A stretch of DNA of 64,000 bases from Escherichia phage ECCR664, in the sequence record OL631257.1; one strand, written 5' to 3'. Within the stretch, counting starts at the first letter, position 1, and every line of letters starts with the position of its first letter. Below the pieces are notes generated by a model, which saw only the letters and a program-made list of their open reading frames with translations, did no database searches and was not told the origin of the DNA. Positions 7,099 to 61,639 of this stretch are shown here, in pieces. Position numbers and translations under genes: made by a program.

Positions 7099-7099
7099 G

Positions 7100-7107
7100 T
7101 ATAAATA
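7100..7107 (+). promoter_or_regulatory. T4-type late promoter TATAAATA upstream of gene 36
   Basis: Exact TATAAATA at 7100-7107, followed by RBS aaggag and ATG at 7132. Confidence 0.7.
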
Positions 7108-7131
7108 TGGTATACATATAAGGAGACAACT

Positions 7132-7796: not shown

Positions 7797-7804
7797 GAGG
7801 ACTT

Positions 7805-10800
7805 ATGGCTACATTAAAACAGATACAATTTAAAAGAAGCAAAGTAGCAGGAGTTAATCCTACTGCAGCACAATTAGCCGAAGGCGAATTAGCGATAAAC
7901 TTAAAAGATCGAACTCTTTTACTAAAGACGACCTCGGTAATATTATTAGCCTAGGCTTTGCTAAGGGCGGGGATATTAACGGTAATGTAACTCAAAATGG
8001 AGATTATTTACAGAACGGTACATATAATCTCAATGGAAATCAGTTTGTTTATGCAGGAAAATATATTGAATTTTTACCTAAAACTGCAGGCAATGGTGCT
8101 TGGGCAAATCAACATCTAAATAAAGCTCCTATCTTTACAGATTTGAGTTCAACTACTTCTGTTTCAGAATATCATCCACTGATTAAACAACGCTATAAAG
8201 ATGGAACTTTTTCTGTTGGTACGTTAGTAAACGAAGGAAGTTTTAAAATTCATTTTATGAATGAATCTGGTGATTCGAAATATTGGACGTTTCGCCGTGA
8301 CGGTGGATTTACTGTTGATGGTGGAGGTTTAGCAGTATCAGGAGGTAGTATAACTACATCTGGAAATATTGCAGCTCTCGGAAATATTACTTCGCCTCAG
8401 ATTAATACTAAAAATATTATTTTAGACACAAAAGCATTTGGACAATACGATTCGCAATCATTAGTTCAATATGTTTATCCTGGAACAGGCGAAGAAAATG
8501 GTGTAAACTATCTTCGTAAAGTTCGCGCTAAATCAGGCGGAACTATTTACCATGAAATCGCTTCAGCTCAAACTGGTAAGAATGATGAAATTTCTTGGTG
8601 GACCGGAAATACACTTACTACTAAATTAATGGGTCTTCGTAATGATGGCGCAATGGTATTACGTCGTTCACTTGCTATTGGCACAATTACTGCTGACGAA
8701 AATACTAACAACTATGGCTCTCCTACTCCAATGGGAGAAAGATATATTGCTTTGGGCGATGCTGCAACTGGTTTAAAATATATTAAGCAAGGCGTTTATG
8801 ATTTAGTAGGTAATTGGAATTCTGTTGCTTCTATTACTCCTGATAGTTTCCGTAGTACTCGTAAAGCATTATTTGGACGCTCAGAAGACCAAGGCGGAAC
8901 CTGGACAATGCCTGGAACCAACGCCGCGCTTTTATCGGTTCAAACCCAGGCTGATACAAACAATGCAGGTGATGGTCAAACCCACATTGGATATAATTCT
9001 GGCGGTAAATTTTCCCATTATTTCCGTGGTACAGGTCAGATGAATATCAATACCCAACAAGGTATGGAAATTAACCCGGGTATTTTGAAATTGGTAACCG
9101 GTGCAAATAATGTGATGTTTTATGCTGATGGCGGTATTACATCCACTAAGCAGCTTTCAATATATAATGGTGTATATTTAGCAGCTAATAATTCTACTGC
9201 CGGGCTAACATTCGCTCCAACTACTACAGTTGATGGCACTAAGCAAATTTTGTGGGAAGGTGGTACTCGTGCTGGGCAGAATAAAAGCTACGTAACTGTT
9301 AAAGCATGGGGTAATTCATTTAACGCATCCGGCGATCGTACTCGTGAAACAGTTTTTGAAGTAGCTGACGGGCAGGGATATTATTTTTATTCTCAGCGCA
9401 TAGCTCCAACCGGTTCAGAAACTGTGGGACCTGTTGTAACCCAGTTCAATGGACAAGTTAATGCTAGAGGAGCATTATCACCGATGGAAGTCTTAGAGTT
9501 AATGGATTAAGTGCATTATCCGGACAAGTTACTATGGATAACGGGCTTGTTTTATCCGGTGGTGGTTCTATTACCGGTCAAGTTAAAATCGGTAATACCG
9601 CAGATGCTTTCCGTATTTACAATGCTGAATATGGAGCTATTTTCCGTCGTTCTGAAGCGTCTTTGCATATTATACCTACACTTAAAGATGCAGGTGAAAG
9701 TGGTGGTATTTCTAACCTTCGCCCATTGAGTGTTTCTCTTAACAACGGTATGGTTCAAATGCGCCATTCTGTTACGTTAGGTGATGATGGTGCTGGCGGT
9801 AATATGGTGACCGTTGATAATGATAATAAACTTGTTGTTATAACTAGTCATAGTCGCATTTCTCCTAATTACCGTATGCAATTAGGACAATCGGCATATA
9901 TCGACGCTGAATGTACTGATACTGCACGACCTGCTGGAGCCGGTTCTTTTGCTTCACAAAATAATGAAAACGTTCGTGCTCCGTTCTATATGAATATTGA
10001 TAGAACAGATACAAGCACTTATGTTCCTATTGTGAAACAAAGATACGTTCAAAATAATAGTTGCTATTCTATTGGTACTTTAATTAATGGTGGTAACTTT
10101 AGAGTTCATTATCACGAAGGTGGTGACGGCGTTTCTACTGGTGCTGTTATAAAGGATCTTGGATGGGAATTTAATAAAAACGGTGATTTTTATTCTCCTG
10201 GTAAATTAGGCGCTGGTAATGTTCGTATTGGTACTGATGGTAATATCACTGGTGGTTCTGGTAATTTTGCTAACTTGAATACCACAATAAATAACCTTAA
10301 GACGGATATTGTCTCGAGTTACCCAATTGGTGCTCCGATTCCTTGGCCTACTGATACACCTCCTGAAGGCTATGCCATAATGGAAGGTCAAACATTTGAT
10401 GCTGGCTTGTATCCTAAGTTAGCTGCAGTGTATCCTTCCGGCACTCTGCCTGATATGCGTGGTCAAACTATCAAGGGTAAACCATCTGGGCGTGCTGTAT
10501 TAAGTACAGAAGCAGACGGTGTTAAGTCACATAGCCATAGTGCAAGTGCATCAAGCACGGATTTGGGTACTAAGACCACATCAAGCTTTGACTATGGTAC
10601 TAAGACGACAAGTAGTTTCGACTATGGTACTAAGACCAGTAATAATACTGGTGCTCATACGCATAGTTTGAGCGGTTCCACAAACACCGCCGGTGCGCAC
10701 AGCCACACAAGCGCTCTTTATGCGGGAAGTAACAACGCTCCTGGTATTGGTTCTATAAGAGGATCCGCCGGTGGTGGTAATACGCTTGGAACTTCTTCTT

Positions 10801-14056: not shown

Positions 14057-14397
14057 TTAAACCATTCCTTAATACGTTGCCAAATAGATTTTTGTGCTTG
14101 TTTATTTACACCAATCGAACGAATAACAGGTTGTGACTGCTGATATTCTTTATAATCTTCTTTATAGACTTCGTAAGCGGCATCAACAAATGAACTGATC
14201 GCTGCCATAAAGTTTTTACGTATACCGCCAGGAGCTACTCCATTAGGGAATTCAGAATTTTCGCGAATAATTAAATATAACCCAGCTTTAACTTTAACTA
14301 TAGTTCCAAGATAAGCCCCATGGTACCAAATATCCCATCCTTCCTGAGTAGGTTCTGCACATTTACGAAGTTCGTTAATAATATTCAGCTTATTCAT
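14053..14397 (-). CDS. Hypothetical early protein (114 aa), position of T4 motA.1
   Basis: Intact ORF directly downstream of motA; ATGA overlap with the upstream ORF. Confidence 0.4.
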
Positions 14398-15150: not shown

Positions 15151-15357
15151 TCATTTCTTTAATAAGGCCAATAAGTTTTGCCTTTTAGAACGAAGCTTTT
15201 CTAAATGATATCCGTTTGAACCGCGAACAACTAAAGAATTGATTTCAACTTCTAAGAAATTTAATTCTTCAACAAGTGCTTTACGGGGAGCATTCATACC
15301 AGGTTTAACTTTACCGAAACGAGTAGTTGTGTTTTGGGTTAATTTCATTTTAGACAT
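15151..15357 (-). CDS. Hypothetical small basic protein (68 aa)
   Basis: Start set at internal Met (MSKMKLTQNTTTRFGKVKPG...) because the longer ORF would run through the promoter at 15392-15426. Confidence 0.4.
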   Translation of the reverse strand: MSKMKLTQNTTTRFGKVKPGMNAPRKALVEELNFLEVEINSLVVRGSNGYHLEKLRSKRQNLLALLKK

Positions 15358-15391
15358 TTTATTTCTCCAATTTGGTTGTTTTGTTTTTGAT

Positions 15392-15426
15392 AGGTCTATA
15401 ATATCACGTTTGAAGCACGTGTAAAC
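15392..15426 (-). promoter_or_regulatory. T4-type early promoter (near-duplicate of the motA promoter)
   Basis: Minus strand GTTTAC...TATTATAGACCTATCAAAA...GGAGAAATAAAATG; about 60 bp nearly identical to 15040-15105. Confidence 0.6.
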
Positions 15427-15593
15427 TGTTTTGTGAGAAAAATGCACAAAAGGGAGCCGAAGCTCCCTAATCGCGATTGTCCAACCAATACAGCCAAATC
15501 ACTAGTGCAGCTATTGCACCGAGAAATCCTAAGGCTAGGGCACTCAAAGTGCCTCCAAGTCTTTAGTGTACTCTGTCACAACATCAGTAGACT

Positions 15594-16865
15594 TCAATAC
15601 TCATTTTCTTCTTTCTTAGCTTTAGCTTCTTCTGCTAGTTTACGTGCTTCATCGGAAGTGATATGGAAGATGTTAAGACCTACCAGTTTATCAACATGTT
15701 CTTTATACATTTCGATTTGTGCTAGCTCTTCAGTCAAAGCTTTACGAGTCTTGCCCTGAATCACAATTTCACCACTGATAACTTTTTTGATGAAGTGTGC
15801 CTTAGCAAAAGCCAGTTTAAATGCTTTTTCAGATTCAAGGATTTTGTTGTCAATACGTTTCTGAACGTAAGTCTTACGGACTTCAACAAAATCTTTGATT
15901 AAGTCCACTACGTTATCGTAGACCGCTAATTTACCTTTTTCATTAATCACTGTGATGTTTTGTGAACGACGTTCGATGAGACTAAAATCTTTCATGATTT
16001 TTTCATGACGTAGCTCTTCGTCATCTGGAAGCGAGTACTCTTTACGGAACTTCACCTTAAACCCAAAGCCGTGTTCACCACAATCATCTTCCCATGAGAT
16101 TAGACCTTTGTCTTCCAACGGGTCAAGAACCTTACTCACATACGTTTCACGGTCGAATTTATATGGTATTTCAGTTATCTGCATTTGAGTACGAGATGTG
16201 AACTTGTATGTTCCGTGAATCTCATAACGCCCATCAACTTCATGCACTTCACCACGGAATTCCGGGAATTCAACTTTTGGCTTAGTGACATTTTTACCTT
16301 GAAGAGCTTGTAATACAGCCTTTTGACCGATTTAAAACTATGAGGCAGAATATTTGTTGCGTAACCGGTTGCAATACCAGAGACACCGTTCAAAAGAACT
16401 GTCGGAATAATAGGAAGATAGAATTTTGGTGGAACGTGTTCTTTATCTTCATGAGCTGGAGCATATTCAGTATCTTTATAGACATTATAGAAATTTTTAC
16501 TTACACGAGCAAAAATATAACGAGATGCTGCAGCTTTTGGACTGTTCTAGAACCAAAGTTGCCTTGACCATCTAACAGTGGATAGTTGTTGTTCCATGTG
16601 TTAGCCATTAATGCACCTGCATCTTGTGCAGAAGATTCACCATGGTGATAACCTAAATCTGCAACACCACCCGCAATTGATGCAAGTTTATGAAATTTTT
16701 CTTTATTACCACGAGCCAAATCTAATGCACGATGAACCACAAAACGTTGAACCGGCTTAAATCCATCAATCATATTTGGGATTGCACGGTTTTCAACGGT
16801 GTACATCGCATATGCTAAGGCTTCGTTATCAATAATACTTTTAGATTACGAGAATTCAATTGCAT
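15594..16865 (-). CDS. 52: gp52 DNA topoisomerase II medium subunit (GyrA-like; several frameshifts)
   Basis: N-terminal MQLN.R.LK... then ...MYTVENRAIPNMIDGFKPVQRFVVHRALDL (ORF 16501-16806) and C-terminal 217-aa fragment 15594-16247. Confidence 0.8.
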
Positions 16866-22806: not shown

Positions 22807-23907
22807 TTACGCTGTGAAGATTTTATCCCACATCGCAACAACTGCATCTCGGTTATACTTCTTCCATACTGCTTCAGCACGTTTAACTCGAGCTTCGTAT
22901 GTGTCAGTGAATTCTAATACAGCTTTTGTGTAAAGCGCAACTACTTCTTTCTTAGGAGTAGAAGAATCAATTTCTACACGCACAGTATCTGGGTCGTATT
23001 CGAATGTCGCATGCGGATAATCCTTAAAAACTAACTGGATTACAGGGACACCTTTAGAAATGGCTTCAATAGAACTATTCTCTACCGTACCCGTGTCAGG
23101 ACACGTATTGATAAGTGCTTTAGCTGTTTTAAGACGTTCCATGATTTCACTGTGTGGAGCATCAATAATAACAGGATATTTAGCTGGTGGTGCCCATTTG
23201 CTTGGACAATAACCAATACCATTTTCGCCTAGTGCTTTAATTGCTTCAAGAGCAACATCAGTGCGACGCATCTTAGTGTCATAACGTTGAGCACTAATAA
23301 TCAAATCAGTTGCCGGAAGAACTTCAGGTTTTTCATTCAAACAAATAACCGGGTAGTCATCAGGTTCAAATAATGGATTTTCACGCCAGTAGTCATAATC
23401 AATTTTGTCAGTAAGAGCTGAAGTCATATGACAATATTTACGTTCAAATTCACGGAATGCTTTAGTAGGAGCATAGCTCTTCCCACCGTTCTTGTGAATC
23501 TGGATAGTCTGATCCCAAATTTGAACAATACCACGAGACACCGGTTCAAACGGCGTAGCCATAAAATTCTTATGAACTTTAGAGAGTCCAGCATCTTTAA
23601 TTGCTTGGACGGTTAGTTTAGTCGGTTCCATAGTAACAACAAAATCGTATTCATGGATGCCGGCTAGTTCAACGATCTTACGAGCCATAGTATAACTCAT
23701 ACCTAGACTGAATTTAGTCAGATGACCAACAGGATGGTGTGTAACCTTCCAATCACCAAATGTGTCATTATCAAAACCAATATAATCAATATCAGCACCG
23801 ATGGACACAAGATATTTCAACACATTTAAATGTACTGCTTCAAGACCACCTTGTACACGTTCTGGGTTAAACGGGACTGCGCGAGATGGGATAAACATAA
23901 CTTTCAT
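22807..23907 (-). CDS. GT-B fold glycosyltransferase (candidate DNA hmC sugar transferase)
   Basis: Intact 366-aa ORF; C-terminal region GTVENSSIEAISKGVPVI fits the GT4/GT-B donor-binding motif E-x7-E ...G.PV(V/I); sits immediately after rIIA where T4 has rIIA.1/gene 60. Confidence 0.55.
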   Translation of the reverse strand: MKVMFIPSRAVPFNPERVQGGLEAVHLNVLKYLVSIGADIDYIGFDNDTFGDWKVTHHPVGHLTKFSLGMSYTMARKIVELAGIHEYDFVVTMEPTKLTVQAIKDAGLSKVHKNFMATPFEPVSRGIVQIWDQTIQIHKNGGKSYAPTKAFREFERKYCHMTSALTDKIDYDYWRENPLFEPDDYPVICLNEKPEVLPATDLIISAQRYDTKMRRTDVALEAIKALGENGIGYCPSKWAPPAKYPVIIDAPHSEIMERLKTAKALINTCPDTGTVENSSIEAISKGVPVIQLVFKDYPHATFEYDPDTVRVEIDSSTPKKEVVALYTKAVLEFTDTYEARVKRAEAVWKKYNRDAVVAMWDKIFTA

Positions 23908-25827: not shown

Positions 25828-26272
25828 TATTTAAATTTAATTTTCTGAAGTGTATCAATTGCAGCTAAACGCCCTTGTTCACTTTTAACCGTAATGACCA
25901 CATCGCCTGATACGATCACCGAACCATCAACAAATTCTATAGAGCCTTTTTGAAATCGACAGCTGTATCTGGTTCCGGAACTTCTTCAAAGAATTTAAAT
26001 TCTGCACCATAAATCAGAATATCACCTTGCATACTATGAATAGTTCGGCCATAATCGCCTACGGCTTCTACAGCAATCACTGAAACACCATAACCAATCA
26101 TCTCTTCCACAATAAAATCTTTAGACAATAAAGTAGTATGCAGATTAGTATTAAGACGTTTACCAGTCGTATTAAGAATTCTCAAGAAATTATCTTCCTG
26201 TCCTTTGATAATACGATATTTCTTACCAACTTCAAAACCTTTAAAACCTTTAAAAGACGTATTAAAAGCCAT
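25828..26272 (-). CDS. Hypothetical early protein (~148 aa, one frameshift)
   Basis: ORF 25937-26272 continues in another frame to a stop near 25828; hairpin aagggc-cgga-gccctt immediately downstream. Confidence 0.35.
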
Positions 26273-28162: not shown

Positions 28163-28660
28163 TTAAGCTTTAAGAGGAGATACATAGCGAGTGATTTCAG
28201 ATTCTTTAACAACTCGGAAGTCACCTAAGAATACGATATTGTATAACTTTTCACCATCTTCAACCCATTGGTCACTAATGAAGCCGCACATAGTATCAGT
28301 TTTGCTTGGATAACCGTATTCGTCGATGTAATCAAATTCTTTATCGGTTATAAATTCAACGCCTTTGCAAAGGGTCCATTTGAACTGTGTAGTAGGCTCA
28401 ACGATATCGTTTGAAGCAAAGTGTGCAGGTGCAACTTCTTCGCTTGAAGCAAATTGGACTCGTATATGTTTTTCCAGGAATTTAGGACTTACGTAAGCAT
28501 ACTGGGCATCTTGTCCGCCAAAACTCGGAATGATTCGAACTTTAACTTCTTTAACACGTCCCATGCCGTTAGTACGAAGCCCTGCTACTTCAACCAGACG
28601 ACCTGCAGCTTTAGAACGAGAAGCAGGAGATACACGAAGGATTTCACCAATAGTAATCAT
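28163..28660 (-). CDS. Paralog family member B (~165 aa), unknown function
   Basis: Motif CGFISDQWVEDGEKLYNIVFLGDFRVV; start set at MITIGEILRV downstream of promoter 28688-28722. Confidence 0.5.
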   Translation of the reverse strand: MITIGEILRVSPASRSKAAGRLVEVAGLRTNGMGRVKEVKVRIIPSFGGQDAQYAYVSPKFLEKHIRVQFASSEEVAPAHFASNDIVEPTTQFKWTLCKGVEFITDKEFDYIDEYGYPSKTDTMCGFISDQWVEDGEKLYNIVFLGDFRVVKESEITRYVSPLKA

Positions 28661-34797: not shown

Positions 34798-34979
34798 TCA
34801 GAATAACTTGACCCGGAATCACCAGGCCAAGACGATACGTATGAATGATTATAACTTGAAGAGCTTGAAGCATTAACCTGTTTTGTTTTTGGACGAACAA
34901 CTTCTTCCATCATTCCATCACCAATGTATTCCCAACTTTTTCGTGTGTATCAGGAATAGGCATCATACCTTCGCCTGGT

Positions 34980-35589: not shown

Positions 35590-36108
35590 TTAGTAACCAT
35601 TATCCTGACGTTCAAAGTTGTGTTGATTTTTCAAGTAGTAAAGTTTAAAGATTTCTTCTGCTGTAAGACCAAGACCTTGGAACATGTTCAGAACGAAATG
35701 CAGAATATCAATCATTTCAAACTTAATTTCAAGCTGGTCTTCAGGAGACAGTTCATCGATACGACGATTTCGATATTCAGCATGTTGTGCTTTCCATGGC
35801 TTCCATACACTGCTGGCGGCTTTTTCACCATTGCTCATACCACCAAGTGAAGTCAGCAGTTCACGGAATTCATCATCAATATAATCTTTCTGATTACGCA
35901 GCCAATCAACAACATCACCAGCAGTAGCCAATTCATCAGGATGTTTGTTATGTTCAGGCTTGTCATTTGCCAGACGAACCTGTAAAGATTTCTGCATATC
36001 AAGCATTACCTGAAGTGGGTCTTTATCTTCGTGAATCAGAGCATTAAAATAAGCTTCTTCTGCTTTATCAACACCAGAAATAAGTTGTGAACATTCGTTA
36101 AAGTGTGC
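35590..36108 (-). CDS. 56: gp56 dCTPase/dUTPase (MazG-like)
   Basis: Start at MAHFNECSQL...; ...WLRNQKDYIDDEFRELL...EIKFEMIDILHFVLNMFQGLGLTAEEIFKLYYLKNQ, T4 gp56-like. Confidence 0.8.
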   Translation of the reverse strand, partial: AHFNECSQLISGVDKAEEAYFNALIHEDKDPLQVMLDMQKSLQVRLANDKPEHNKHPDELATAGDVVDWLRNQKDYIDDEFRELLTSLGGMSNGEKAASSVWKPWKAQHAEYRNRRIDELSPEDQLEIKFEMIDILHFVLNMFQGLGLTAEEIFKLYYLKNQHNFERQDNGY

Positions 36109-36199
36109 CATTATTTTTCCTTTCAATTCAGTATAAGAGAGTTAATTCTAACATTAATTTTATAAAGCGTAATAAATAATAGGTAACTAAGGAGATATT

Positions 36200-42562: not shown

Positions 42563-42911
42563 GATAACTCCTTAAAAGAATTTAAATTTTTCTTGGTTCG
42601 TTCATTAAAAGCTTGTTGTACCTGCATTGTAACACATTTTTCAACATGTGGTGCAAGTTCTGCTTTTCTGTCCTGGTCAAGAACTGCAAAGTCCATTACG
42701 ATTTTACCATCAACCCAGTCTAGTTTTGTAATATAGACTATATGATGGGAACCGTCTTCAAGTGTAATCAGAATCTCTTGAATGACATTTTCCATTGCTG
42801 AACGGATAATTTTAAGAGATTCATTAAACACTCGTTCTTTGCGAATGTCTTCCCTTCCGAAGAAGGGGATTCATCAACGATTTCTAGATTTAAATCATCG
42901 AGATTATTCAT
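42556..42911 (-). CDS. 40: gp40 head vertex assembly chaperone (one frameshift)
   Basis: Starts MNNLDDLNLEIVDESPSSEGKTFAKNE then continues as ORF 42556-42831; position between uvsX and 41. Confidence 0.55.
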
Positions 42912-44074
42912 CGAAATCTTCCATTTCGTCAAGGTCGTTTTCAATATCTGCTGCAGACGGAGCATCAGAAGCTTTAACCGGAACTTTAGTTGTTGCTTTG
43001 CAATTAATAAGGTCGTTAACAGCGTCATCAACTTCTTTAATAGAAGAGATAGCACCTAGTTTATATTTAGTTTCAATTGCATCTCGGAAAGGTTTGTGTT
43101 TAAACAACGGCCCCCAGAATTCTACGCAATCAGTAGCTTTAGCACGCCATGATTTCTCTTCACGAATCATTTCACCTGTTTCTTCGTCAAGGAATTCACG
43201 AGCATACCAACCAGCTTTAGGTTTAACCACAAAACCAATTTCAGTTGCCATTTCTAACAAGCCACTGAATGGGTCAATACCGCCATCAAAATTAACCGTG
43301 ATTGGGAAAGTAGATTTCTCTTTAACTGTACGAGATTTTTCTGCTTTCAACGTGAAGTCATAACCGGTCAATTCTGTACCTTCTTTAACCTGACGTTTAG
43401 AGATAAAAATACTGTGTTAGCAGAATAAAGAATACCTGTACCACCGCCCATAATCTCTTTAGGATATAGTCCGCCGATTTCCATTGCTGTATGGTTGATT
43501 GCAACACATGGAATATCTTTAATAGTCAGATACGGGGTTACAATACGGAAAAGAGATTTAAGTGCCTTAGCACGAGACATATCACCTACGACTTTCTCGT
43601 TCAATGCATCTTCGGTTTCTTTCTTAGATGCAGTGTTACCGATTGAATCGATAAAGATAATAACTTTATCACCGCGTTCAATCGCGTCAAGCTGATTAGT
43701 CATATCAACTTTAAGTTGTTCGACGGACTGAATTGGTGTATGAACTACACGGTCTAAATCAACACCCATTGAACGGAAGTAAGATTCTGAAGCACCGAAT
43801 TCTGAGTCATAGAACAAACAGATTGCATCTTTATATTTCTTCATATACGCTGCAACCATAGTTAGTCCAAACAATGTTTTAAAATGTTTAGAAGGTGCAG
43901 CAAAATAGTCAAGCCTGATTGCAATCCTGCATTCAGAGCACCACCTAGTGCAATATTCAACATCGGAATACGAGTAGGGACTTCATCACGATTATTAAAC
44001 AGCTTAGACTTAGTCAAGTCTGCAGTCATTTTAGAAGTAGAAGCTTTAATCAGACGAGATTTTAAATCAGACAT
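42904..44074 (-). CDS. uvsX: UvsX recombinase (RecA-like; two frameshifts)
   Basis: Three consecutive fragments (43862-44074, 43368-43874, 42904-43371) giving ~390 codons; acidic C-terminus DLDEMEDFDE. Confidence 0.85.
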
Positions 44075-44173: not shown

Positions 44174-44722
44174 TTAACGAGCCCATTTGATAATTTCTGT
44201 AATCAAATTATTACGTTCGCTTGCATTAAATCCTATAACTTTGTTAGCACCATCATGATTAAGTAATTGATACGTTTGGATTTTGTTATGAATTGCAAAC
44301 TCTTCAAAATGTGAAATGACTGTATTAAAACCGAATGAAGACAAAGTAATAAGATCGTCTTCAAAACTTTCAGTCATTTCGTTACGTGTTAAAATAATTG
44401 TGAACACATCATGGTTTTGGCAAAGACGAATATAATCCTGTTCATAAACGTCAAGAACCGAGTCCGCATCTTGTCGAATACGTCCATAAACCCAGTTACT
44501 AATATATCCACGGTCTAACAGATAAATCTTAGTAGGGTCTAAATAATTCAACATCGTTTCGAAACAGCCAACTTCATTTCGAGACTTAACATCGAAACGT
44601 CCATCAACTGTTCGTTTAGGGAAATCAATCTTTACATATCTTTCACTAATTTCCATTATGTCATTAATGAAAGTTGTTTTACCAGCATTATCCGGTCCGT
44701 CTACTAAAATAATTTTAGCCAT
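44174..44722 (-). CDS. P-loop nucleotide kinase (thymidylate-kinase-like)
   Basis: Walker A VDGPDNAGKTT at N-terminus and LLDRGYISNWVYG (DR motif); occupies the site of beta-gt in T4. Confidence 0.55.
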   Translation of the reverse strand: MAKIILVDGPDNAGKTTFINDIMEISERYVKIDFPKRTVDGRFDVKSRNEVGCFETMLNYLDPTKIYLLDRGYISNWVYGRIRQDADSVLDVYEQDYIRLCQNHDVFTIILTRNEMTESFEDDLITLSSFGFNTVISHFEEFAIHNKIQTYQLLNHDGANKVIGFNASERNNLITEIIKWAR

Positions 44723-44723
44723 T

Positions 44724-45623
44724 TTATTCCTCGATTACGACATCTTCGTATTTAGGTATATTATACGGTGAAGAAATTAAAGCATTAAAGTAGATGAACT
44801 CACCAAGACCTGGATGGAATACTTCTTCAGGATTTTCGAAATATTGAATCTTCGGACGTCCTTTAAGAATTTGATAGTACTCAGTTTTAGTTGGATTAAA
44901 AATTCGAATCAGCGCTTCTTCGGGATACTTATTTCTGTCGAAACTATTATTTGGATCAGTTATATAAAGCGGTTGACCTAATTGAATTGCGCATTCAACC
45001 ACTTGTTCAAAACGATAGCATGGGTCACTAATTCGAAATGGATGAAAAATACCATCTAGATGAATAGGAGCCAAATCACCTACAAGACGCTGCATGACGG
45101 AAGGACGTATAACTTTCTGCGTTACGATAATCTTATTACCATCTGCACCTGCGTTAACCAGCACTTCTTTTTGACGTTCATTCAACACAGTAGTTTGAAG
45201 TGAACGATTAACCGACAACATATCGGTTTTTAAGAATTCGTCAATATAAAAACGTGGTTTATTAGGGTCTGCAGTGATATTGAAATTGAATTCCACATCA
45301 AAAGCGCCGTCATATCCGGTGATATCTGTGATTAGAAAATCACAATCATAATAAGCAATTAATGAATCAACCACAAATTCATTTTCAGACCAGAAATATT
45401 TACGAGTGTTATACGCGTTATCTTTATACCATAATGGAACAAACTTAAATTCTGGGAAAAGACGTTCACATTCTTTAATATCGGATGCATTACGTGGATA
45501 TGTAATCACATCACCTGGATTAGCACGGTGCAAATGAAGTTGGAAGTTGCCATCCTTAAGGATAGCATACTGTCCAGTTTCATAAGACCGCATACTCAAG
45601 ATTGGTACGCGGAAAATAGCCAT
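44724..45623 (-). CDS. Hypothetical protein (299 aa) in the gene-42 operon
   Basis: Intact ORF, tightly packed between the kinase and gene 42 (1-nt spacers/overlaps); no motif recognised. Confidence 0.4.
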   Translation of the reverse strand: MAIFRVPILSMRSYETGQYAILKDGNFQLHLHRANPGDVITYPRNASDIKECERLFPEFKFVPLWYKDNAYNTRKYFWSENEFVVDSLIAYYDCDFLITDITGYDGAFDVEFNFNITADPNKPRFYIDEFLKTDMLSVNRSLQTTVLNERQKEVLVNAGADGNKIIVTQKVIRPSVMQRLVGDLAPIHLDGIFHPFRISDPCYRFEQVVECAIQLGQPLYITDPNNSFDRNKYPEEALIRIFNPTKTEYYQILKGRPKIQYFENPEEVFHPGLGEFIYFNALISSPYNIPKYEDVVIEE

Positions 45624-46339
45624 TAGTCAAGGAATCCTTTAACATAATCAAAATCACGTTCAAACACATGGGCACTTACCATGGTATGAGTATAATCACC
45701 AACTTCTACACCACATTCGTTAGCGATATAATGAAGTAATTTTCCTTGGAGATAAAAATCCAACTGCATAACAACAGCACAGTTCTGAGAACGCATATGA
45801 CAGTGGGTATAAAGCTTACCATCACGAATATAATAAGTCACTGAGTCAGTACATGGATATTCAAGTGTTTCGTCCGAATCAAGCAAAGCCTGATCAGAAC
45901 TTTCTAGAATTTGGAACACAACTCTTCGAGAGTTAGGTTTCTCTTTAAGTTCTTTTAGAAGAGCTGGTAATTGGGCCACAATGCGAGGACCGTAGAAAGT
46001 GTTGAAGTTCGCCGGCAAAACATCTGATTTTGGTTTAGAAATAAATTTAGCGACATTAGGATATGCCTTAAACGCTTCTTCTGCGTTGGTACCACCAGAA
46101 ATCATAAACTTCCAGAAGTCTTCGGCATATTCATAAGAGATGCGGTTAATACGTGGGTCGGTCATTTTGAATGATGATGGAGTGTCAACAACTACTGTCA
46201 TGGACCCGATTTCATTACAACGTCCAATACGAGAATCAGTTACGAATTCGGGGTTTTCTAAAATTTCACGATTGACTGCTTTAAATGCGGCTTGAAAATC
46301 TGCGGCTTTGATATATTTCATTGTGTTATGTTTTCCCAT
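45623..46339 (-). CDS. 42: gp42 dCMP hydroxymethylase (thymidylate-synthase family)
   Basis: ...YPCTDSVTYYIRDGKLYTHCHMRSQNCAVVMQLDFYLQ... aligns with the T4 gp42 active-site region (CT..V.Y.IRD......MRS.D). Confidence 0.7.
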   Translation of the reverse strand: MGKHNTMKYIKAADFQAAFKAVNREILENPEFVTDSRIGRCNEIGSMTVVVDTPSSFKMTDPRINRISYEYAEDFWKFMISGGTNAEEAFKAYPNVAKFISKPKSDVLPANFNTFYGPRIVAQLPALLKELKEKPNSRRVVFQILESSDQALLDSDETLEYPCTDSVTYYIRDGKLYTHCHMRSQNCAVVMQLDFYLQGKLLHYIANECGVEVGDYTHTMVSAHVFERDFDYVKGFLD

Positions 46340-46621
46340 GTTTACCTCAATACAATTTATTATATACTCAATTCGTAAAGCTTATTTGAATTTCTTGGCA
46401 ATGTTGATATAACGTAAAGCTTCAGAATCTATACTTCCAAGAACACTATGAAGGAATGCATCAGTGTAGTATTCCAATTGAACAGGTTCTTTAATCACTT
46501 TAGCCGCTTTGGTTTCAAACAGGCCCATAAGGGCCTTTTAAGAATTTGTTCGTTAGTGTTCAGTTTTATAGTCAAAATCTCTTCATTAAGTTTATAATTA
46601 AAAGTTTTTCTAGAAATCATT

Positions 46622-47774
46622 CCGGGTACCTCAAAGCGTCATCAGAGTTAGTTATATCAATAATAGATATAGAGTTTTCTGATAACCCATTTTTAGATAA
46701 CTGACGTTTATAATATCTTTCACAATATGTACACGTCGTCCCGCAGATTTCATTAGCACAATCGAAATCTGGATGTCTGAACCACCTTTTTCTAAAAAGC
46801 CATCTAACAAAGAGGTTTCAATATTTACTGTATGTGAAAACTCAGTCTCATTTTCAAGAGTGAAAATAGTCTCTAAAGGCTTCCACAGTTCTAACAAATT
46901 ACCTTCAAACTTTTCAGAAGCGTATGCTTCAAGAACTTTCAAAATGTAGTCGGTGCTACCTGTACGTCCTGAAACTTTGAATTGAGTGATACCAATATCA
47001 TTATAAAGTTTCAAATCTTGAGGACGAACAAAACGAGTTCTCAACCAGTTAAATGGGTCTGTATCACGAGCTTTAATACAGTGCTGCATAGGATATCCGT
47101 TTAAGGATTTAGCATCATCAGCTGTAACATCAGTACTATGGAAAATATAGCAAGAGTCACGATAGCTACAATGTGTTGTATACCCTTTACCAGCATTAGA
47201 ACAGAACTCATTTACAAGAACTTCAAATATTATATTGTTCTTATTGCAAAACTCTGCTGCACGCTTCAGGAAAGAAACTGAACGGTTCTTATGAATTCCG
47301 CAGCAGACTTTTTTGATGTTATATTGGTCGTGCAAGTATTTGATTTGAGTTACAGCATCAACATGTAGAATTGTTGAAACTTCAATCTCAATGTCTTTAT
47401 TGACTTCACGAACAATTTCCATAACAACAGGGTTAGCGATAGTAATACGCCATACGCCTATTGACCAAAGATACTGAACATAATCCTGAATAGCTTTCTT
47501 CTTCCACTCAACTAGTTCTCTTTTGAACCAGGATTTATCGTGTTGAGTGTATAGTTAAAGCAAATACCTAATTCGTTACAACGTTTAACGTAGTCTTCTA
47601 ACATCTTTTGTCAACGTCAGGAAGCCTAAAATCAGGTCTGGCTGCTACAAAAGCCATTTCTCTTGTAGAACCATATACTTCGTTTATCAAGCTATTAGGA
47701 TAGGTTTTATTGAGCTCTACGATTTTATCAAGAAGAGCTAAATCAAAATTCGTTCCGATTTTAAAAGTATTCAT
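46622..47774 (-). CDS. Hypothetical protein (~380 aa, at least two frame breaks); Cys-rich C-terminal segment
   Basis: N-terminal MNTFKIGTNFDLALLDKIVELNK...; 256-aa fragment 46652-47422; an alternative frame near the 3' end encodes ...FDCANEICGTTCTYCERYYK (CxxxCxxC). Confidence 0.35.
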
Positions 47775-47828
47775 TTTTGCATCTCGCGTTAATTGATGCG
47801 ATGGTTTTTGCAGGTCTTACTTAAATTA

Positions 47829-48230
47829 TTATAGATTCGGTTTATACGATTTAAATGTTTCGAATTCGCCTTTATTCATAAGAGCTTTGAATTCGTCAGG
47901 ACGCATAGCTTTGTCGTCGATAATCCAATCATATACTGGTTTATGTGTTAGCAAATTATGGTACTTCAAACCAATGTTTTCCAAGTTCTGAATCAGACTT
48001 GGGAGAATGTCAATTGCTATACGACCAGGACCTACCGACTTCATACCACGAGCCGTGTAAAGCGTTATGGTATGCCCTGCATCATACAGGGCATTAATGG
48101 CGGACACCATTTCGACGTCTGGTTTGAAGTTCACGTAATCACGATTGTTATTCCACTCTGTTATACAATCATCGACATCAAAACAAAGATTAAGCATGTT
48201 TTCTACACGGTGCATTAGATTCGTTCCCAT
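47829..48230 (-). CDS. HAD-superfamily phosphatase
   Basis: Motif I LCFDVDDCIT, motif II ...TLYTARG, motif IV WIIDDK; true start probably the internal Met MLNLCFDVDD. Confidence 0.55.
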   Translation of the reverse strand: MGTNLMHRVENMLNLCFDVDDCITEWNNNRDYVNFKPDVEMVSAINALYDAGHTITLYTARGMKSVGPGRIAIDILPSLIQNLENIGLKYHNLLTHKPVYDWIIDDKAMRPDEFKALMNKGEFETFKSYKPNL

Positions 48231-48285
48231 TGATGAGTGATATCGCCACCGATTGGACGATAGGAAACACCAGTTTCTTTATCAG

Positions 48286-49104
48286 TTAGTACCCATTTAC
48301 CAGGATTTTTGTAATCAGAGTAGCCGTTACAGGTTCTGCTACGTCATAACTAATAGAGCCGTCCTGAAGTACACGGCCCATGTTACGTAATTGCTTAGTC
48401 AGAAGTTCCATGCCTTTATAATATGCGGCTACCGCTTTAAGTGGATTATTCTTGAAATAACCACCTAATGCAATCCAGATAATTGCTACTGCCAAATGAT
48501 GATACTCGTTAAACGAACTCATCTTTCCATATTTGTAAACTAGTGGATTGATGTTAATAGTCACATTACAAGTTGTTTCATCAATAATAAACTGGCCCCA
48601 GGTCGGATTAGCGTTGAATTCATCATAACCTGAAACAGCATAAAGCACTTTAGCTTCATCATACAATTTTGGCCCGTAAATCTTGGTTTCACCAAAATAT
48701 CCACGAGGGTCGATAAACTTGACTTCGCCGTTATCAGTAATCATGGTATTACTGAAGTTCGGGTCACCGTGAATAACAGAGTACTGTCCCTGAGAACGGT
48801 TATGATAACGAATAAGGTGTTCTAAAGCTTGTTTCAACATTGGCTTCAGACGTCCAATCTTAGTGTAGTTCACACGTGTGATTTTACCAAATGAATCAAT
48901 CAATGGTTGAATGCTTTCACAACGATCAATAACTTTCGTATAGAATTCTTTAGTGAAATCACGACGAACAGTTTCAGGACTTACAAAATAAGCGTCTGTG
49001 CTGAATTTCAGTGCATCTAAAATTGCATCAACAATTTGTGGACGAGCAAGACTTGATTTGGATTTAATATATTCAAATGCTGGCTTACCTTTAATACGTT
49101 CCAT
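48286..49104 (-). CDS. Kinase of the aminoglycoside-phosphotransferase / choline-kinase fold (putative sugar kinase)
   Basis: Brenner-type catalytic motif VIHGDPNFSNTMI followed by KFIDPRGYFGE. Confidence 0.55.
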   Translation of the reverse strand: MERIKGKPAFEYIKSKSSLARPQIVDAILDALKFSTDAYFVSPETVRRDFTKEFYTKVIDRCESIQPLIDSFGKITRVNYTKIGRLKPMLKQALEHLIRYHNRSQGQYSVIHGDPNFSNTMITDNGEVKFIDPRGYFGETKIYGPKLYDEAKVLYAVSGYDEFNANPTWGQFIIDETTCNVTININPLVYKYGKMSSFNEYHHLAVAIIWIALGGYFKNNPLKAVAAYYKGMELLTKQLRNMGRVLQDGSISYDVAEPVTATLITKILVNGY

Positions 49105-49130
49105 AATAAAGTGGCCGCCAGGATGATAAC

Positions 49131-49900
49131 TTACAATCCGTGGAACTGAATCTGATTTAACTTTCTTATACCAATTGACTTCATCTTTTGAAGTGCAACG
49201 CCCTGTTCTGTTAAAGCAATCTTTGTTACCGTTTCTTCGCCAATTTCAACTGCATTAAAACTACGATTAAGTTCACGAACTTCATGAGCTTTTTCAAGTT
49301 TAGGCATATCACCAAGGTCGATGATATTCATAAGCTCTGATTTATTGAATGCGCCGCTGTAAAGGAATTCTACAAAATCACGTCCTTTGCAGTATTCGTG
49401 AATTTCCTCATCAGTAGAACCCATGTAGAATTCCCAGTCTTTGAACTGATAAATTCCTACAACATTACCGCCTGTTGAACCTACGTTAGTGATATTTTCA
49501 CCATCGAAATTATATCGACATTCATCACCTTTAACATAGATTGCGTTAACATTCCAAGACCATGAACCAAAATCAGGAATAATATCACACCAGTTAACAA
49601 CTACGTTATGGCCGTCTAAATCTTTATGTAATTTAGCAAGAGCATAAGCAGAACCATACGCTTCATCAACTGTACGAATAGTCACATTGAACCCTTCTTG
49701 CTCACAATAAGCTCGAACGGTTTCAGCAAATTTTGAATGAACTACTACAATAATTTCATCTGCGCCAAGGTCAGAATAAATTGTGTACAAATTGCTCAGA
49801 ATAGTGTCTTGTTTATAGTTCACAAGAACTTTTGGAATATGGTGAGTAATTGGATATAAACGAGTTGCCAATCCAGCACCAAGAATAACAGCTTTTTCAT
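49131..49900 (-). CDS. Sugar-phosphate nucleotidyltransferase (frameshifted near N-terminus)
   Basis: After frame repair N-terminus reads MKKAVILGAGLATRLYPIT, the G-x-G-T-R-L-x-P-x-T nucleotidyltransferase signature; 246-aa fragment 49131-49871. Confidence 0.6.
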
Positions 49901-49941
49901 GTTGAAGTCCTCATTGGTAAGTAGGTGTATTGTACACTATT

Positions 49942-50085
49942 CTAGTTAAAGCATTCATACTTTGCCTGTAGACCAATCATAATCCATCCAATTACAAGTG
50001 TTGGAATCATTACTGGAGCCGTTAAGCTCCAGTAGATAGTCATGACAAGCATCAATAGTAAAAGTCCTATTGTTATTGCTTTCAT
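49942..50085 (-). CDS. Small membrane protein (47 aa), position of T4 imm
   Basis: MKAITIGLLLLMLVMTIYWSLTAPVMIPTLVIGWIMIGLQAKYECFN; ATGA overlap with the SIS gene stop. Confidence 0.35.
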   Translation of the reverse strand: MKAITIGLLLLMLVMTIYWSLTAPVMIPTLVIGWIMIGLQAKYECFN

Positions 50086-50716
50086 TGTTCGCCTCGTAAC
50101 ATGGCACCTAGTGCACCGCCAGGGTGGAACTTAAGGAAGTCATTAGAGGTAAATCCACGTTCAGACGAAAGGTTGATAGCGAACGTATCGATAAGCGCTA
50201 ACAACAATGTAGTGGACATTGTCGGAGCTAAAGAGTTCTCGTCGACTTCCACCGCGATACCGGTACAGAACGTATAATCAAAAGAGCTTCGTATTCTTGC
50301 GGAATGTCAGGGTTACAATGTAACAGAATCTGTTTAACCTGAGGACGAATCATACGAAGATGTTTAGCAACACCTATCATTTCTTCAGTCTTACCAGAAC
50401 GACTAATATGAATCAACACATCATTAGGCGCAATGAATCCTGCATCACCGTGAGAATAATGCCCGGTGTTCAAGTACATACTCGGGATACCGAGTGAAGC
50501 AAATGTCTCAGAAGCTTTAGTTGCGATATTAGCGTTCTTACCAACACCTGTAATAATTACACGACTTTCATAATTACTCAGTCCAGGGCGTCGAAGAGTT
50601 TCTAGAATAGCATTATAACGAGCAGGGTTTTGACTAATTACTTTAGCCATGGTGGCAAGAGATGAAGCTTGTTTTACGATTGCGTCAATAGCGATAGTGA
50701 TTGGTGTAGTTTTCAT
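50082..50716 (-). CDS. SIS-domain sugar-phosphate isomerase (KdsD/GutQ-like; one frameshift)
   Basis: ...ITGVGKNANIATKASETFASLGIPSMYLN...VLIHISRSGKTEEM and, after frame repair, C-terminal ...FHPGGALGAML. Confidence 0.6.
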
Positions 50717-58848: not shown

Positions 58849-59083
58849 CCTCGATACATGCTTCAGTCATTTTAAGAATAGAGCCAGGAGTATCGTTGTC
58901 CATTATATTAAAGCTAAATTCAATAGCCCAGTCGGTACAGACATGAACAGCTTTAACTTCGTTGCCTTCAACGCGTAATGGCTCAATCCAATACTTGATA
59001 GTGTTCTCGAATCCATCATCATCTTTAACATCTATTTCAACTTCAAGACCGAGCCCAGCATTGTTAAATTCATCTAAAGTCAT
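58826..59083 (-). CDS. Hypothetical acidic protein (85 aa; 46.2 position)
   Basis: Intact ORF; overlaps gene 47 stop. Confidence 0.4.
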   Translation of the reverse strand: MTLDEFNNAGLGLEVEIDVKDDDGFENTIKYWIEPLRVEGNEVKAVHVCTDWAIEFSFNIMDNDTPGSILKMTEACIEDAYNDED

Positions 59084-60099
59084 TGTGTTGCCTCAATATA
59101 AAGTTCGTTGGAATATTTGACCAGCGCTTCTCTGTCTTCGTCTGAGATATCTGGAATCGCGTCAATATATTCTTTAATGATATCTTGAAGTGATTTAATC
59201 TCGATTTCCTGGTCGTCATCAGATTCAACACTGTTATCAACTTTAGAAACCATACGAAGAGAGTGAACTACTTTTTCAAGTTCAGATTCAAACTTAGTCA
59301 ACTCTGAATCAATTTCTGATACTATAACACGTACGGCTAGATTAGTATAATCAGAATAATTGATTTTGCCTTTAAATGGATAAGTGATTCGTCGATGCCA
59401 TGTTGTTTCATTAGGAATAAATTCCATACGTTCAACATCAGTGTCAAATACCCAGAATCCGCGAGGGTCGTTCTCATCGCCTGCAGTAAGGGTCCACGGT
59501 GTCCCAATATATTTGACGTTAGCAGCTTCAGAGATTGTGTGGAAGTGGCCGGACCAGACTTGTTTATAGGTCTTTAAGAAATCAGGTTCAAGCCCGTGAG
59601 ACTTCATTCCTTTATAGAAATAGAAGCCATTTAATTCCCAGTGCCCAACACAATACGATGCAGAAGAAGTCTTGATATGCTCTAAGATTTCACCTGTATT
59701 TTCTTCACACATCCATGGAACGATATCAATCAGACATCCGTCAAAATCTACAGTAGTTGGATGTTCGTAAATAGTAAAGTTTTCAAATTGAGTTAACAAT
59801 TCAGAAACAGTGTTAGGTGTTATTGTATTCTTAAACGCCATGTCATGGTTTCCTATCGTGACATGAACGTGAATGCCTGCTTTAGAAATCATATCAACGA
59901 TTTCACGATTGAATTCCATCGTACGATGTGTAATTGCTTTACGGACGTCAAACCAATCACCGTATTGAATCCAAGTTTTAATCCCGTGTTTCTTAGAGTA
60001 TTCAATTGCTTGACGAATACCATCACGTTGAATATCTTGAACCCATGGGTCGTCTTGTTTGACTCCGATATGGAAGTCTCCTAAGTGCAAAATTTTCAT
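59080..60099 (-). CDS. 47: gp47 recombination endonuclease subunit (Mre11/SbcD-like phosphoesterase)
   Basis: Intact 339-aa ORF; MKILHLGDFHIG (motif I), ...GNHD..., ...GHWEL..., ...GHFH...; same length as T4 gp47. Confidence 0.9.
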   Translation of the reverse strand: MKILHLGDFHIGVKQDDPWVQDIQRDGIRQAIEYSKKHGIKTWIQYGDWFDVRKAITHRTMEFNREIVDMISKAGIHVHVTIGNHDMAFKNTITPNTVSELLTQFENFTIYEHPTTVDFDGCLIDIVPWMCEENTGEILEHIKTSSASYCVGHWELNGFYFYKGMKSHGLEPDFLKTYKQVWSGHFHTISEAANVKYIGTPWTLTAGDENDPRGFWVFDTDVERMEFIPNETTWHRRITYPFKGKINYSDYTNLAVRVIVSEIDSELTKFESELEKVVHSLRMVSKVDNSVESDDDQEIEIKSLQDIIKEYIDAIPDISDEDREALVKYSNELYIEATQ

Positions 60100-60140
60100 A
60101 TTATTTCCTCATTAGTTAATTCATTCTATCATCCGTTTAT

Positions 60141-60167
60141 AAAGCAAAAAGGAACTCCGAAGAGTTC
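60141..60167 (-). terminator. Intrinsic terminator (UUCG tetraloop) upstream of gene 47
   Basis: Minus strand GGAACUC-UUCG-GAGUUCC followed by UUUUUGCUUU. Confidence 0.65.
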
Positions 60168-60380
60168 CTATCCACATAGTACACCGTACAGAGGCTCATT
60201 TGAACTTTTAAATCGAATGGGCTTGTACGTAATAGTTCCTTCGGCTTTAGCTTTATCATAAGACTCTTTAAAACGTCTCATTCTTTCTGCTTTGCCTTTA
60301 CGGATTTTATCGAAATTTTCAGAAGTCGGGATGTTCGTCATGCATAAGCACCTCTCAGAAAATGCCTAAATCGATTTCTC

Positions 60381-60602
60381 TCATCGTTTCCACCATTTCT
60401 TAACTTGAAATGAATCAACCCACACGAGTTGTTTTGGGTCTGCCTTTACAATAGGCGGACAAATTTCTGTAATAGAACCGTCGTGATATTCCTTTTCAGA
60501 AATTTTAACACAAAGAGGACCTCCCAATTTAAGGGTGAACCCTGCGTTCAGATTCAGACGTTTAAACTTTGTTTGAACTAGCGCCATTAATAATGTCCTC
60601 AA
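60381..60602 (-). CDS. Hypothetical protein (73 aa)
   Basis: Intact ORF in the interval where T4 carries alpha-gt. Confidence 0.35.
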   Translation of the reverse strand: MRTLLMALVQTKFKRLNLNAGFTLKLGGPLCVKISEKEYHDGSITEICPPIVKADPKQLVWVDSFQVKKWWKR

Positions 60603-60679
60603 TAGCCTGACGAGTAGTAACCCACTGGATTTTAATTAACTTGTCATTATATGGTTGTCGTAGAATATCCCGAGATTTC

Positions 60680-60883
60680 TTAATAGCATATTCGTAAGCT
60701 TCGAAGTTGTTTTGAATTGCTGCTTCTTGAGCATGAGCATAAAGTCGATTTAGTTCGAAACGATTCTTTTAAGAATCTTTTCAGATTTTTACGTGCTTCA
60801 GCTTCATTTTTCTTTTGTATTTCTTGTAGCATTTTAGCTACTGCATCTTCTGCTTCTTTATTTTCAATAATCTCGGTAGTCAT
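60680..60883 (-). CDS. Hypothetical protein (67 aa)
   Basis: Intact ORF. Confidence 0.3.
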   Translation of the reverse strand: MTTEIIENKEAEDAVAKMLQEIQKKNEAEARKNLKRFLKESFRTKSTLCSCSRSSNSKQLRSLRICY

Positions 60884-60884
60884 A

Positions 60885-61100
60885 TTATCTCATTAAATTA
60901 AAATAAAAACGTCCGTCCTCTTCAATACAGAACTCGTACTCAACTGGAGTCCCATTTATTGAAAATGACACGTCATGTGGGTTCAAAGGGTCGATGTCAA
61001 AATTAATTTTAAATTCTCGACCCAACAGTTTTACCAAATAAGGGATTGCTTCGTCAAAAGGTTCTTCTAAGTAGTTAGAGATGTCAATTGTCATCCTCAT
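60885..61100 (-). CDS. Hypothetical protein (~70 aa; overlaps the frame-shifted 3' end of gene 55)
   Basis: ORF 60885-61235 begins with gp55-derived sequence then continues as an unrelated peptide; boundary uncertain. Confidence 0.25.
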
Positions 61101-61639
61101 ATAAAAATCCAAACTAGGTGAATCGCTAACAACTTCCTTCTTTTCAGCCCCAGGAGCTTTATAAGCGGATTCTTCATAATGCGTCATTTTATCGTAGATG
61201 TCTTGAATAAACGTTTCATCTACCAACGCTACCATATCATCGTCATGACTGTCGTAGACGTTATGAACGAAGTAACTATATTTCTTTGCAACTTCCTTAC
61301 GTTCTTTTTGATACGTTGGACAAAAGCATTAAAACAAGCTCGAGTTATGTATGCATGTGGGTTATTGTACTTAGTTTCGTCGAAATTATGAAGTCCCTTA
61401 ATAGAGGCTTCAATCCCATCTGCAATCATCTCCTGCTTCCAAGACTGGGTATATCCTGAAAAGTTGAAACGTTTGGACAGGCCTTCGGCGATAAGCATAA
61501 TTGCTAAACCGATGGTATCATTCTGACGAATAATTTTGTTTGGGTCTTTATTATTTAAGAGCTCCTTTTTCCACTCGATTATAGCAGCGAGAAGCTCTTT
61601 ATTATTCACATAGTTATTTTTAGGTTTTTGTTCAGTCAT
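61082..61639 (-). CDS. 55: gp55 late-promoter sigma factor (one frameshift; 3' end approximate)
   Basis: [91 protein letters not shown]..., T4 gp55-like; C-terminal part ...[22 protein letters not shown]... in a second frame. Confidence 0.8.

Follow-up and report, generated by a model that had tools for sequence, protein, structure and literature searches.

No alpha-glucosyltransferase gene between genes 47 and 55 of Escherichia phage ECCR664: a genus-typical Mosigvirus interval and a predicted arabinosyl-5-hydroxycytosine modification

In the DNA of phage RB69, cytosine is replaced by 5-hydroxycytosine that bears one or two arabinoses (Lee et al. 2026, NAR, PMC13326640). The RB69 protein gp48 converts dCMP to 5-hydroxy-dCMP with flavin and O2, an activity that has been shown, and a signature of Cys, Glu and Asp residues was described for this enzyme by Lee et al. 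(PMC13326640). Homologues of gp51, gp52:53 and gp55 make UDP-arabinofuranose, and gp46:47 and gp3 were proposed as the first and second arabinosyltransferases; glycosyltransferases of DLP3, a related phage, had no arabinosylation activity on 5hoC-substituted DNA when purified and assayed singly (PMC13326640). The modification had first been described as arabinosyl-hmC in a study that pointed to ORF003c (Thomas et al. 2018, Viruses, PMC6024577). Both reports state that RB69 has no glucosyltransferase homologues (PMC6024577, PMC13326640), and homologues of b-gt and ba-gt were reported for phage Moon (PMC6024577).

We analysed a stretch of 64,000 nucleotides of Escherichia phage ECCR664 (OL631257.1), referred to below as the window. 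RB69 aligned to it with 94-96.5% nucleotide identity over positions 15349-63999 and with 92-100% identity in the proteins compared. A megablast search with the 3.3 kb around the 47-55 interval returned more than 100 Mosigvirus genomes with 98% identity, including ATK47, LF82-41, mar005P1, moha and JK42. The order 47, terminator, a-gt.2, a-gt.3, a-gt.4, a-gt.5, 55 is annotated likewise in RB69, ATK47 and mar005P1. Judged by these comparisons, the window is part of the genome of a Mosigvirus, an RB69-like T-even phage, and its 47-55 layout is normal for the genus. Taken together with the modification genes described below, the phage is very probably a Mosigvirus in which the interval without a-gt goes along with arabinosyl-5-hydroxycytosine instead of glucosylation.

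Between the start of gene 47 (60099) and the end of gene 55 (approx. 61084) lies about 1 kb with exactly four open reading frames, all on the minus strand, as is every gene from 55.5 to 64 kb. The features of this region are:

59080..60099, minus strand: gene 47, SbcD-like recombination nuclease subunit, 339 aa, forming the lower boundary of the interval (tblastn)
60123..60146, minus strand: putative MotA-type middle promoter for gene 47 (TGCTTTA, N11, -10 box TAGAAT), followed by SD sequence GAGGA and ATG
60146..60169, minus strand: predicted intrinsic terminator after a-gt.2, with 8-bp stem, UUCG tetraloop and T-run (terminator scan)
60168-60341, minus strand: a-gt.2 homologue, 57 aa, DUF5486 (Pfam E = 1e-26), 76% identical to T4 a-gt.2 and 94.7% to RB69p067
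60381-60587, minus strand: a-gt.3 homologue, 68 aa, phrog_1648, 69% identical to T4 a-gt.3 and 98.5% to RB69p068
60562-60883, minus strand: a-gt.4 homologue, true length 107 aa, DUF2654, 71% identical to T4, found as two tblastn segments in different frames
60885-61100, minus strand: a-gt.5 homologue, 69-71 aa, DUF5491, 48% identical to T4 and 100% to RB69p070
approx. 61084..61639, minus strand: gene 55, late sigma factor, true length 185 aa, found as two tblastn segments

The gene 47 product was 76% identical to T4 gp47 across all 339 aa (tblastn) and 99.7% identical to RB69 gp47. A preliminary description of this DNA had placed the a-gt gene of T4, at roughly 1.2 kb, between genes 47 and 55 and had noted its absence here. 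Both statements hold: T4 a-gt occupies 1203 bp at that place, and the a-gt gene is absent from the interval studied here. No homologue of T4 or T2 a-gt was detected by tblastn anywhere in the 64-kb window (best E = 1.7). The slot between genes 47 and a-gt.2 is a spacer of just 68 nt (60100-60167) with the terminator, the middle-promoter match and the SD sequence and ATG of gene 47. The RB69 spacer is 69 nt long, and the two sequences are distinguished by a single substitution and a single homopolymer base. The other genes of the T4 insert are missing too: tblastn found no homologue of T4 47.1 or mobB in the window or in RB69. The b-gt gene, likewise described as missing, is indeed not to be found; T4 b-gt and T2 ba-gt gave no homologue in the window (tblastn, best E = 3.0 and 0.19) and none in the RB69 genome. 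The place next to uvsX where these genes normally lie is taken by an unrelated 299-aa putative transferase.

The "three or four small unknown ORFs" of 60-75 aa in the same description turned out to be four, with sizes of 57, 68, 107 and 69-71 aa, and they are named and conserved. All four also occur in T4, in identical order, so they are no replacement for a-gt. Searches of a-gt.2 to a-gt.5 against Pfam, PHROG and PDB sequences returned DUF and unknown-function families alone, with no solved relative, and one incidental mention of them was found in the literature. One PHROG label names a-gt.2 a "head maturation protease", a known mis-annotation that has spread through the Moon and T2 records. 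Glucosylating phages and carriers of arabinosylation genes have a-gt.2 to a-gt.5 in common, so these proteins are unlikely to serve one particular kind of DNA sugar, and their function is probably unrelated to it.

The terminator that had been noted in the interval was recovered by both the terminator scan and RNA folding. On the minus strand, from 60169 to 60146, the sequence reads AGGAACTC-UUCG-GAGUUCCU followed by a T-run; with the stem written as AGGAACUC-UUCG-GAGUUCCU, the hairpin is followed by a U-run. With a free energy of -15.4 kcal/mol (z = -4.1), the calculated fold was more stable than those of all 200 shuffled sequences. A deletion in a homopolymer at 60146 left the T-run one T short. 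With its GC-containing stem-loop and U-run, the hairpin has the make-up of a Rho-independent terminator and is predicted to act as one; a terminator is annotated at the same place in ATK47.

T4 middle promoters have as their consensus a MotA box, (a/t)(a/t)(a/t)TGCTT(t/c)A, located approx. 12 nt upstream of a TAnnnT -10 box. The sequence TTTTGCTTTA-N11-TAGAAT at 60123-60149 on the minus strand fits this pattern, and gene 47 is predicted to be served by a MotA-dependent middle promoter of the T4 type. Throughout the window, TGCTTYA-N10-13-TANNNT occurred 15 times, compared with 2.35 matches expected by chance. A scan of the interval for sigma-70 promoters yielded seven candidates at an expectation of 7.2, which is chance level, and we therefore claim no early promoter for the interval.

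In the uncorrected sequence several genes of the region appeared broken. In the open reading frame list, gene 55 was truncated to 136 aa, a-gt.4 was reduced to a 67-aa stub, and an ORF of 116 aa began with the C-terminus of gp55; genes 46 and uvsX were fragmented as well. Such odd fragments might suggest that a larger gene, such as a transferase turned pseudogene, has decayed into the small ORFs. We give this reading practically no credence. Each fragment maps to a full-length conserved ORF of T4 and RB69, and none has similarity to a-gt. Comparison with relatives located single-base homopolymer deletions at 60767, 60786, 61103 and 61305. The first two break a-gt.4, those at 61305 and 61103 shift the frame of gene 55, and the one at 61103 also fuses a-gt.5 with the C-terminal part of gene 55 in the raw window. 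Restoration of these four A/T-run bases recovered all ORFs intact, with 95-100% identity to RB69. The repaired gp55 comprised 185 aa with 99.5% identity to RB69 gp55, and a-gt.4 comprised 107 aa with 100% identity to RB69p069; the a-gt.5 product was identical to RB69p070. After repair, the order of the interval was that of RB69 and its proteins were 94.7-100% identical.

The losses extend over the whole window. Compared with the Mosigvirus genomes LF82-41 and ATK47, it contained an indel about every 500 nt, approx. 130 in total, most by far being losses of 1 nt in A/T runs. A/T runs of six were depleted 4- to 8-fold, with 1.7 per 10 kb here and 7-14 per 10 kb in relatives. Among the modification genes, the homologues of p050, p052:53 and p055 carried apparent frameshifts. 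Because all of these are 1-nt losses in A/T runs, and because the essential genes 46, 55 and uvsX are hit too, we read the frameshifts in the window as probable sequencing artefacts, including those in the modification genes. The assembly needs homopolymer polishing before gene-level claims are made.

In T4, the region between uvsX and gene 43 contains segA, b-gt, 42, imm and imm.1. The corresponding region of the window, from uvsX (42904-44074) to gene 43 (from 50757), holds the gp45-gp55 block of RB69 instead. Together with two genes located elsewhere in the window, the components are:

22807..23907, minus strand: ORF003c homologue, of the second (beta) arabinosyltransferase type, 366 aa, 97.5% identical to RB69p003, between rIIA.1 and gene 39
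35593..36111, minus strand: gene 56, dCTPase, predicted to supply dCMP and exclude dCTP, 97.7% identical to RB69p028
44174..44722, minus strand: thymidylate-kinase-like nucleotide kinase of the RB69p045 type, 98.4% identical to RB69p045 (phrog_761, thymidylate kinase)
44724..45623, minus strand: putative first DNA arabinosyltransferase of the RB69 gp46:47 type, 299 aa, intact, 98-99% identical to RB69p046 and p047
45623..46339, minus strand: thymidylate-synthase homologue of the 5-hydroxy-dCMP synthase (RB69 gp48) type, 98.3% identical to RB69p048, in the place of T4 gene 42
46620-47777, minus strand: U32-like protein, 93-100% identical to RB69 in significant segments
47832-48215, minus strand: HAD phosphatase, 98.4% identical to RB69
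48218-49898, minus strand: predicted bifunctional arabinose-phosphate kinase / UDP-arabinose pyrophosphorylase, a fused nucleotidyltransferase/kinase, 92-100% identical to RB69
50085-50716, minus strand: predicted arabinose-5-phosphate isomerase with SIS domain, 96-98% identical to RB69

Several genes of the gp50-gp55 block (46620..50716, minus strand) were split by apparent frameshifts when searched by tblastn with RB69p050-p055, at identities of 92-100%. All RB69 modification genes that fall within the span of the window were present with 92-100% protein identity. The positive evidence for a different, predicted DNA modification is this set of gp45-gp55-type genes between uvsX and gene 43 together with the ORF003c homologue.

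The thymidylate-synthase homologue matched the crystal structures 9iqc/9ir2/9iqu with E = 3e-160 and was only 25% identical to T4 gp42 (tblastn). It carries the catalytic cysteine at position 163, Glu160 at the position of ThyA L143 and Asp194 at that of ThyA N177, as aligned with MAFFT in a set of five sequences including T4 gp42, RB69 td and E. coli ThyA. In a plain pairwise alignment to ThyA, the N177 position was shifted by two residues, so that the assignment of Asp194 relies on the conserved MRS anchor of the MAFFT alignment. The signature residues of the synthase, two candidate arabinosyltransferases and the genes for UDP-arabinose synthesis are all found by sequence.

The ORF003c homologue matched PDB entries 9iqz/9ir0, deposited as GT4-like glycosyltransferase, with E = 7e-250. 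The 299-aa transferase of the gp46:47 type had no Pfam or PDB sequence match; its role as first arabinosyltransferase is a proposed one. It forms a single intact ORF in the window, whereas the RB69 record splits the gene through a sequencing error in RB69. We also observed a positional parallel upstream of uvsX: gene 42 is followed by b-gt in T4 and by ba-gt in T2, and in the window the 5-hydroxy-dCMP synthase homologue is followed by the putative first arabinosyltransferase.

On the model of RB69, the product of gene 56 would convert dCTP to dCMP, which the flavin-dependent thymidylate-synthase homologue (45623-46339) would hydroxylate to 5-hydroxy-dCMP. Kinases would then raise 5-hydroxy-dCMP to the triphosphate for incorporation by the polymerase. 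In parallel, the isomerase, the kinase/pyrophosphorylase and the HAD phosphatase (47832-50716) would lead from ribulose-5-phosphate to UDP-arabinofuranose, and the two glycosyltransferases (44724-45623 and 22807-23907) may place one or two arabinoses onto the 5-hydroxyl group. For RB69 and HY126, these steps have been either demonstrated or proposed; we infer them for the present phage from protein identities of 92-100%. No substantive difference from the pathway of RB69, DLP3 and HY126 was detected; the dNMP kinase (gene 1) is located outside the window. The phage would have no need for glucosyltransferases because a different cytosine would be made.

The window covers 64 kb of approx. 168 kb, and T4-like genomes are mosaic, as illustrated by the tail-fibre region with 74-79% identity to relatives. 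Glucosyltransferase genes might thus have been relocated to the remainder of the genome, leaving the DNA with glucosyl-hmC as in T4. This is highly improbable in the light of the complete RB69 genome, which served as a proxy in the tblastn check for a-gt and b-gt suggested in the preliminary description. No significant match was obtained there: the best hit of T4 or T2 a-gt had E = 0.042 and covered 69 aa inside gene e.5, and b-gt and ba-gt gave nothing better than E = 0.84. The absence was therefore not refuted, in agreement with the literature (PMC6024577, PMC13326640), and we infer from the RB69 genome that the part outside the window probably lacks a glucosyltransferase as well. Furthermore, a T4-type gene 42 is absent, and the only thymidylate-synthase-like enzyme in its slot is of the 5-hydroxy-dCMP synthase type. 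Without a T4-type gene 42, the phage would not produce hmC, on which a-gt and b-gt act.

The synteny comparison with T4, T2 and RB69 that had also been suggested placed a-gt at the junction of 47 and a-gt.2 in T4 and T2, and RB69 has the same order as the window, without a-gt. In RB69 (RB69p066-p071), gene order, spacing, terminator and promoter were as in the window, with a few substitutions and the artefactual single-base deletions of the window as differences. In the Tequatroviruses T4 and T2, genes 47 and 55 and the four a-gt.x genes are arranged and oriented as in the window, with products 48-85% identical, and the same terminator/MotA-promoter cassette follows a-gt.2. Between 47 and a-gt.2, T4 harbors 47.1, a-gt (1203 bp) and the homing endonuclease gene mobB, and T2 harbors 47.1 and a-gt, whereas the window has the 68 nt described above. 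Both T4 and T2 produce glucosyl-hmC, in contrast to the arabinosyl-5-hydroxycytosine predicted for the present phage. A junction search of 50,697 phage records found the uninterrupted 47/a-gt.2 junction in 143 records; in approx. 513 records of the Tequatrovirus type the junction matched in two separate pieces, with a-gt annotated at the break. Gene 47 also adjoins a-gt.2 to a-gt.5 and 55, without a-gt, in Citrobacter phage Moon (Moonvirus) and Escherichia phage dhabil (Dhakavirus).

These distributions bear on the suggestion that the missing a-gt supports an alternative DNA modification. Moon and dhabil share the empty slot, and Moon was reported to have b-gt and ba-gt, so the absence of a-gt by itself is not evidence for another modification. 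The conclusion is nevertheless borne out by the RB69-type genes at 92-100% identity; the part of the argument that does not stand is the use of the empty 47/a-gt.2 slot as diagnostic. It looks as if the a-gt insertion is specific to Tequatrovirus and the empty slot is the general condition of the Tevenvirinae. Since the Moonvirus and Dhakavirus junctions are uninterrupted, parsimony favours a single-lineage insertion, by which Tequatrovirus would have acquired a-gt as an additional module where a-gt.2 meets 47.

The sequences that flank a-gt were compared as well. In T2, a-gt.2 is followed by TAG-GAGC-TTCG-GCTCC, TGCTTTA and TAAAAT, then by the SD sequence and ATG of a-gt. A second look-alike, AGGGC-TTCG-GCCCT, AGCTTTA and TATAAT, follows a-gt and leads into 47.1 and 47. 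T4 has the same two a-gt-flanking cassettes of hairpin, (T/A)GCTTTA and -10 box, with mobB added, and the window has one cassette, at the junction.

The arrangement allows the opposite history, in which a-gt was ancestral and was deleted in Mosigvirus, leaving the cassette at 60123-60169 as the scar of a recombination between the flanking look-alikes. Consistent with such a loss, the a-gt gene of T2 and T4 is bracketed on both sides, parts of the single cassette in the window resemble both T2 cassettes, and deletion between repeated promoter/stem-loop cassettes is documented for T4-type phages (PMC2839356, PMC4122927). We nevertheless regard this course of events as unlikely: the junctions of Moonvirus and Dhakavirus are also uninterrupted, tblastn with T4 and T2 queries detected no coding remnant of a-gt in the window, and the apparent likeness of the cassettes is confined to short sequences.

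Insertion into one lineage, the preferred account, may involve the same cassettes. They are reminiscent of the PeSLs (Arbiol et al. 2010; Comeau et al. 2014), which consist of a stem-loop terminator and a promoter; elements of this make-up likewise bracket a-gt in T2 and T4 and mark the exact boundary between presence and absence. The definition of PeSLs is based on early (sigma-70) promoters and on hyperplastic regions, whereas the promoter found here looks MotA-dependent (middle), and the 47/a-gt.2 locus is not mentioned in the 2014 PeSL paper (Comeau et al.). The comparison suggests, but does not show, that a-gt may have entered or left via recombination between such cassettes. A tentative extension, which we consider possible but doubtful, is that a-gt is a mobile module between two terminator/MotA cassettes, with 60123-60169 as the unoccupied or recombined site, and that T-even phages gain or lose this DNA-modification gene by PeSL-like recombination between middle-promoter cassettes, a class that is not in the PeSL papers.

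The case as such is already known: this is an ordinary Mosigvirus with a known modification system, explained by the published work on RB69 and its relatives. From the RB69 genome onwards, GenBank annotation has shown RB69-like phages without a-gt and b-gt. A first explanation, arabinosylation, came in 2018, followed in 2026 by the arabinosyl-5-hydroxycytosine pathway together with crystal structures. For annotation, the value of the present analysis is that the phage can be labelled as a predicted arabinosyl-5hoC Mosigvirus. A phage with this modification is expected to resist most restriction enzymes and to evade defences aimed at glucosyl-hmC.

The window carries the complete RB69-type gene set for arabinosyl-5-hydroxycytosine, which is located in three places:

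44174-50716: main cluster, including the putative first DNA arabinosyltransferase (gp46:47 type, 44724-45623)
22807-23907: ORF003c homologue
35593-36111: gene 56

The putative transferase forms a single intact ORF of 299 aa, whereas in the RB69 reference record gp46:47 is split in two by a sequencing error.

Comparison with all close relatives revealed systematic one-base losses in A/T homopolymers across the whole window (for example at 43408, 43906, 57337, 57449, 58348, 60767, 60786, 61103 and 61305). Indels of all kinds occur about once per 500 nt, and A/T 6-mers are 4- to 8-fold rarer than in the relatives. The A/T-run deletions, which cause false frameshifts in the essential genes 46, 55 and uvsX as well as in the arabinosylation genes, are a sequencing or assembly artefact. 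In contrast, the window has extra stretches of 9-18 nt compared with the Mosigvirus genome LF82-41, multi-base insertions that look like genuine strain differences; part of them are multiples of three within early-gene regions:

14239-14256: insertion
26238-26261: insertion
28401-28462: insertion
34873-34884: insertion

The distal long-tail-fibre region (~5600-10700; genes 36/37 and neighbours) is a predicted host-range mosaic segment with 74-79% identity to RB69 and LF82-41, and the remainder of the window displayed 94-97%.

In T2 and T4, the alpha-glucosyltransferase gene a-gt is flanked on either side by a look-alike cassette, two in all, consisting of a UUCG-loop hairpin, a GCTTTA motif resembling the MotA box and a -10 box. 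Only one cassette exists at the corresponding junction of the window:

T2, 15215-15390 and 16594-16659: cassettes
T4, 2586-2624 and 4681-4731: cassettes
window, 60123-60169: single cassette

The junction looks like a PeSL-type (promoter/stem-loop) module boundary with a middle promoter.

Propagated mislabels were found in the public annotation of T2 (AP018813) and Citrobacter phage Moon. The T2 a-gt (15391-16593) is wrongly named "N-acetylmuramoyl-L-alanine amidase", and the small ORF a-gt.2 (T2, 16660-16833; Moon, 1950-2138) is misnamed "prohead core protein protease" or "head maturation protease", a label passed on to one PHROG.

The interval between 47 and a-gt.2 also lacks a-gt in Moonvirus (Moon, 1788-2138), where a 33-aa ORF occupies the position of T4 47.1, and in Dhakavirus (Escherichia phage dhabil, 1801-2031). 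Because both genera are devoid of a-gt at this site, its insertion appears to be specific to Tequatrovirus.
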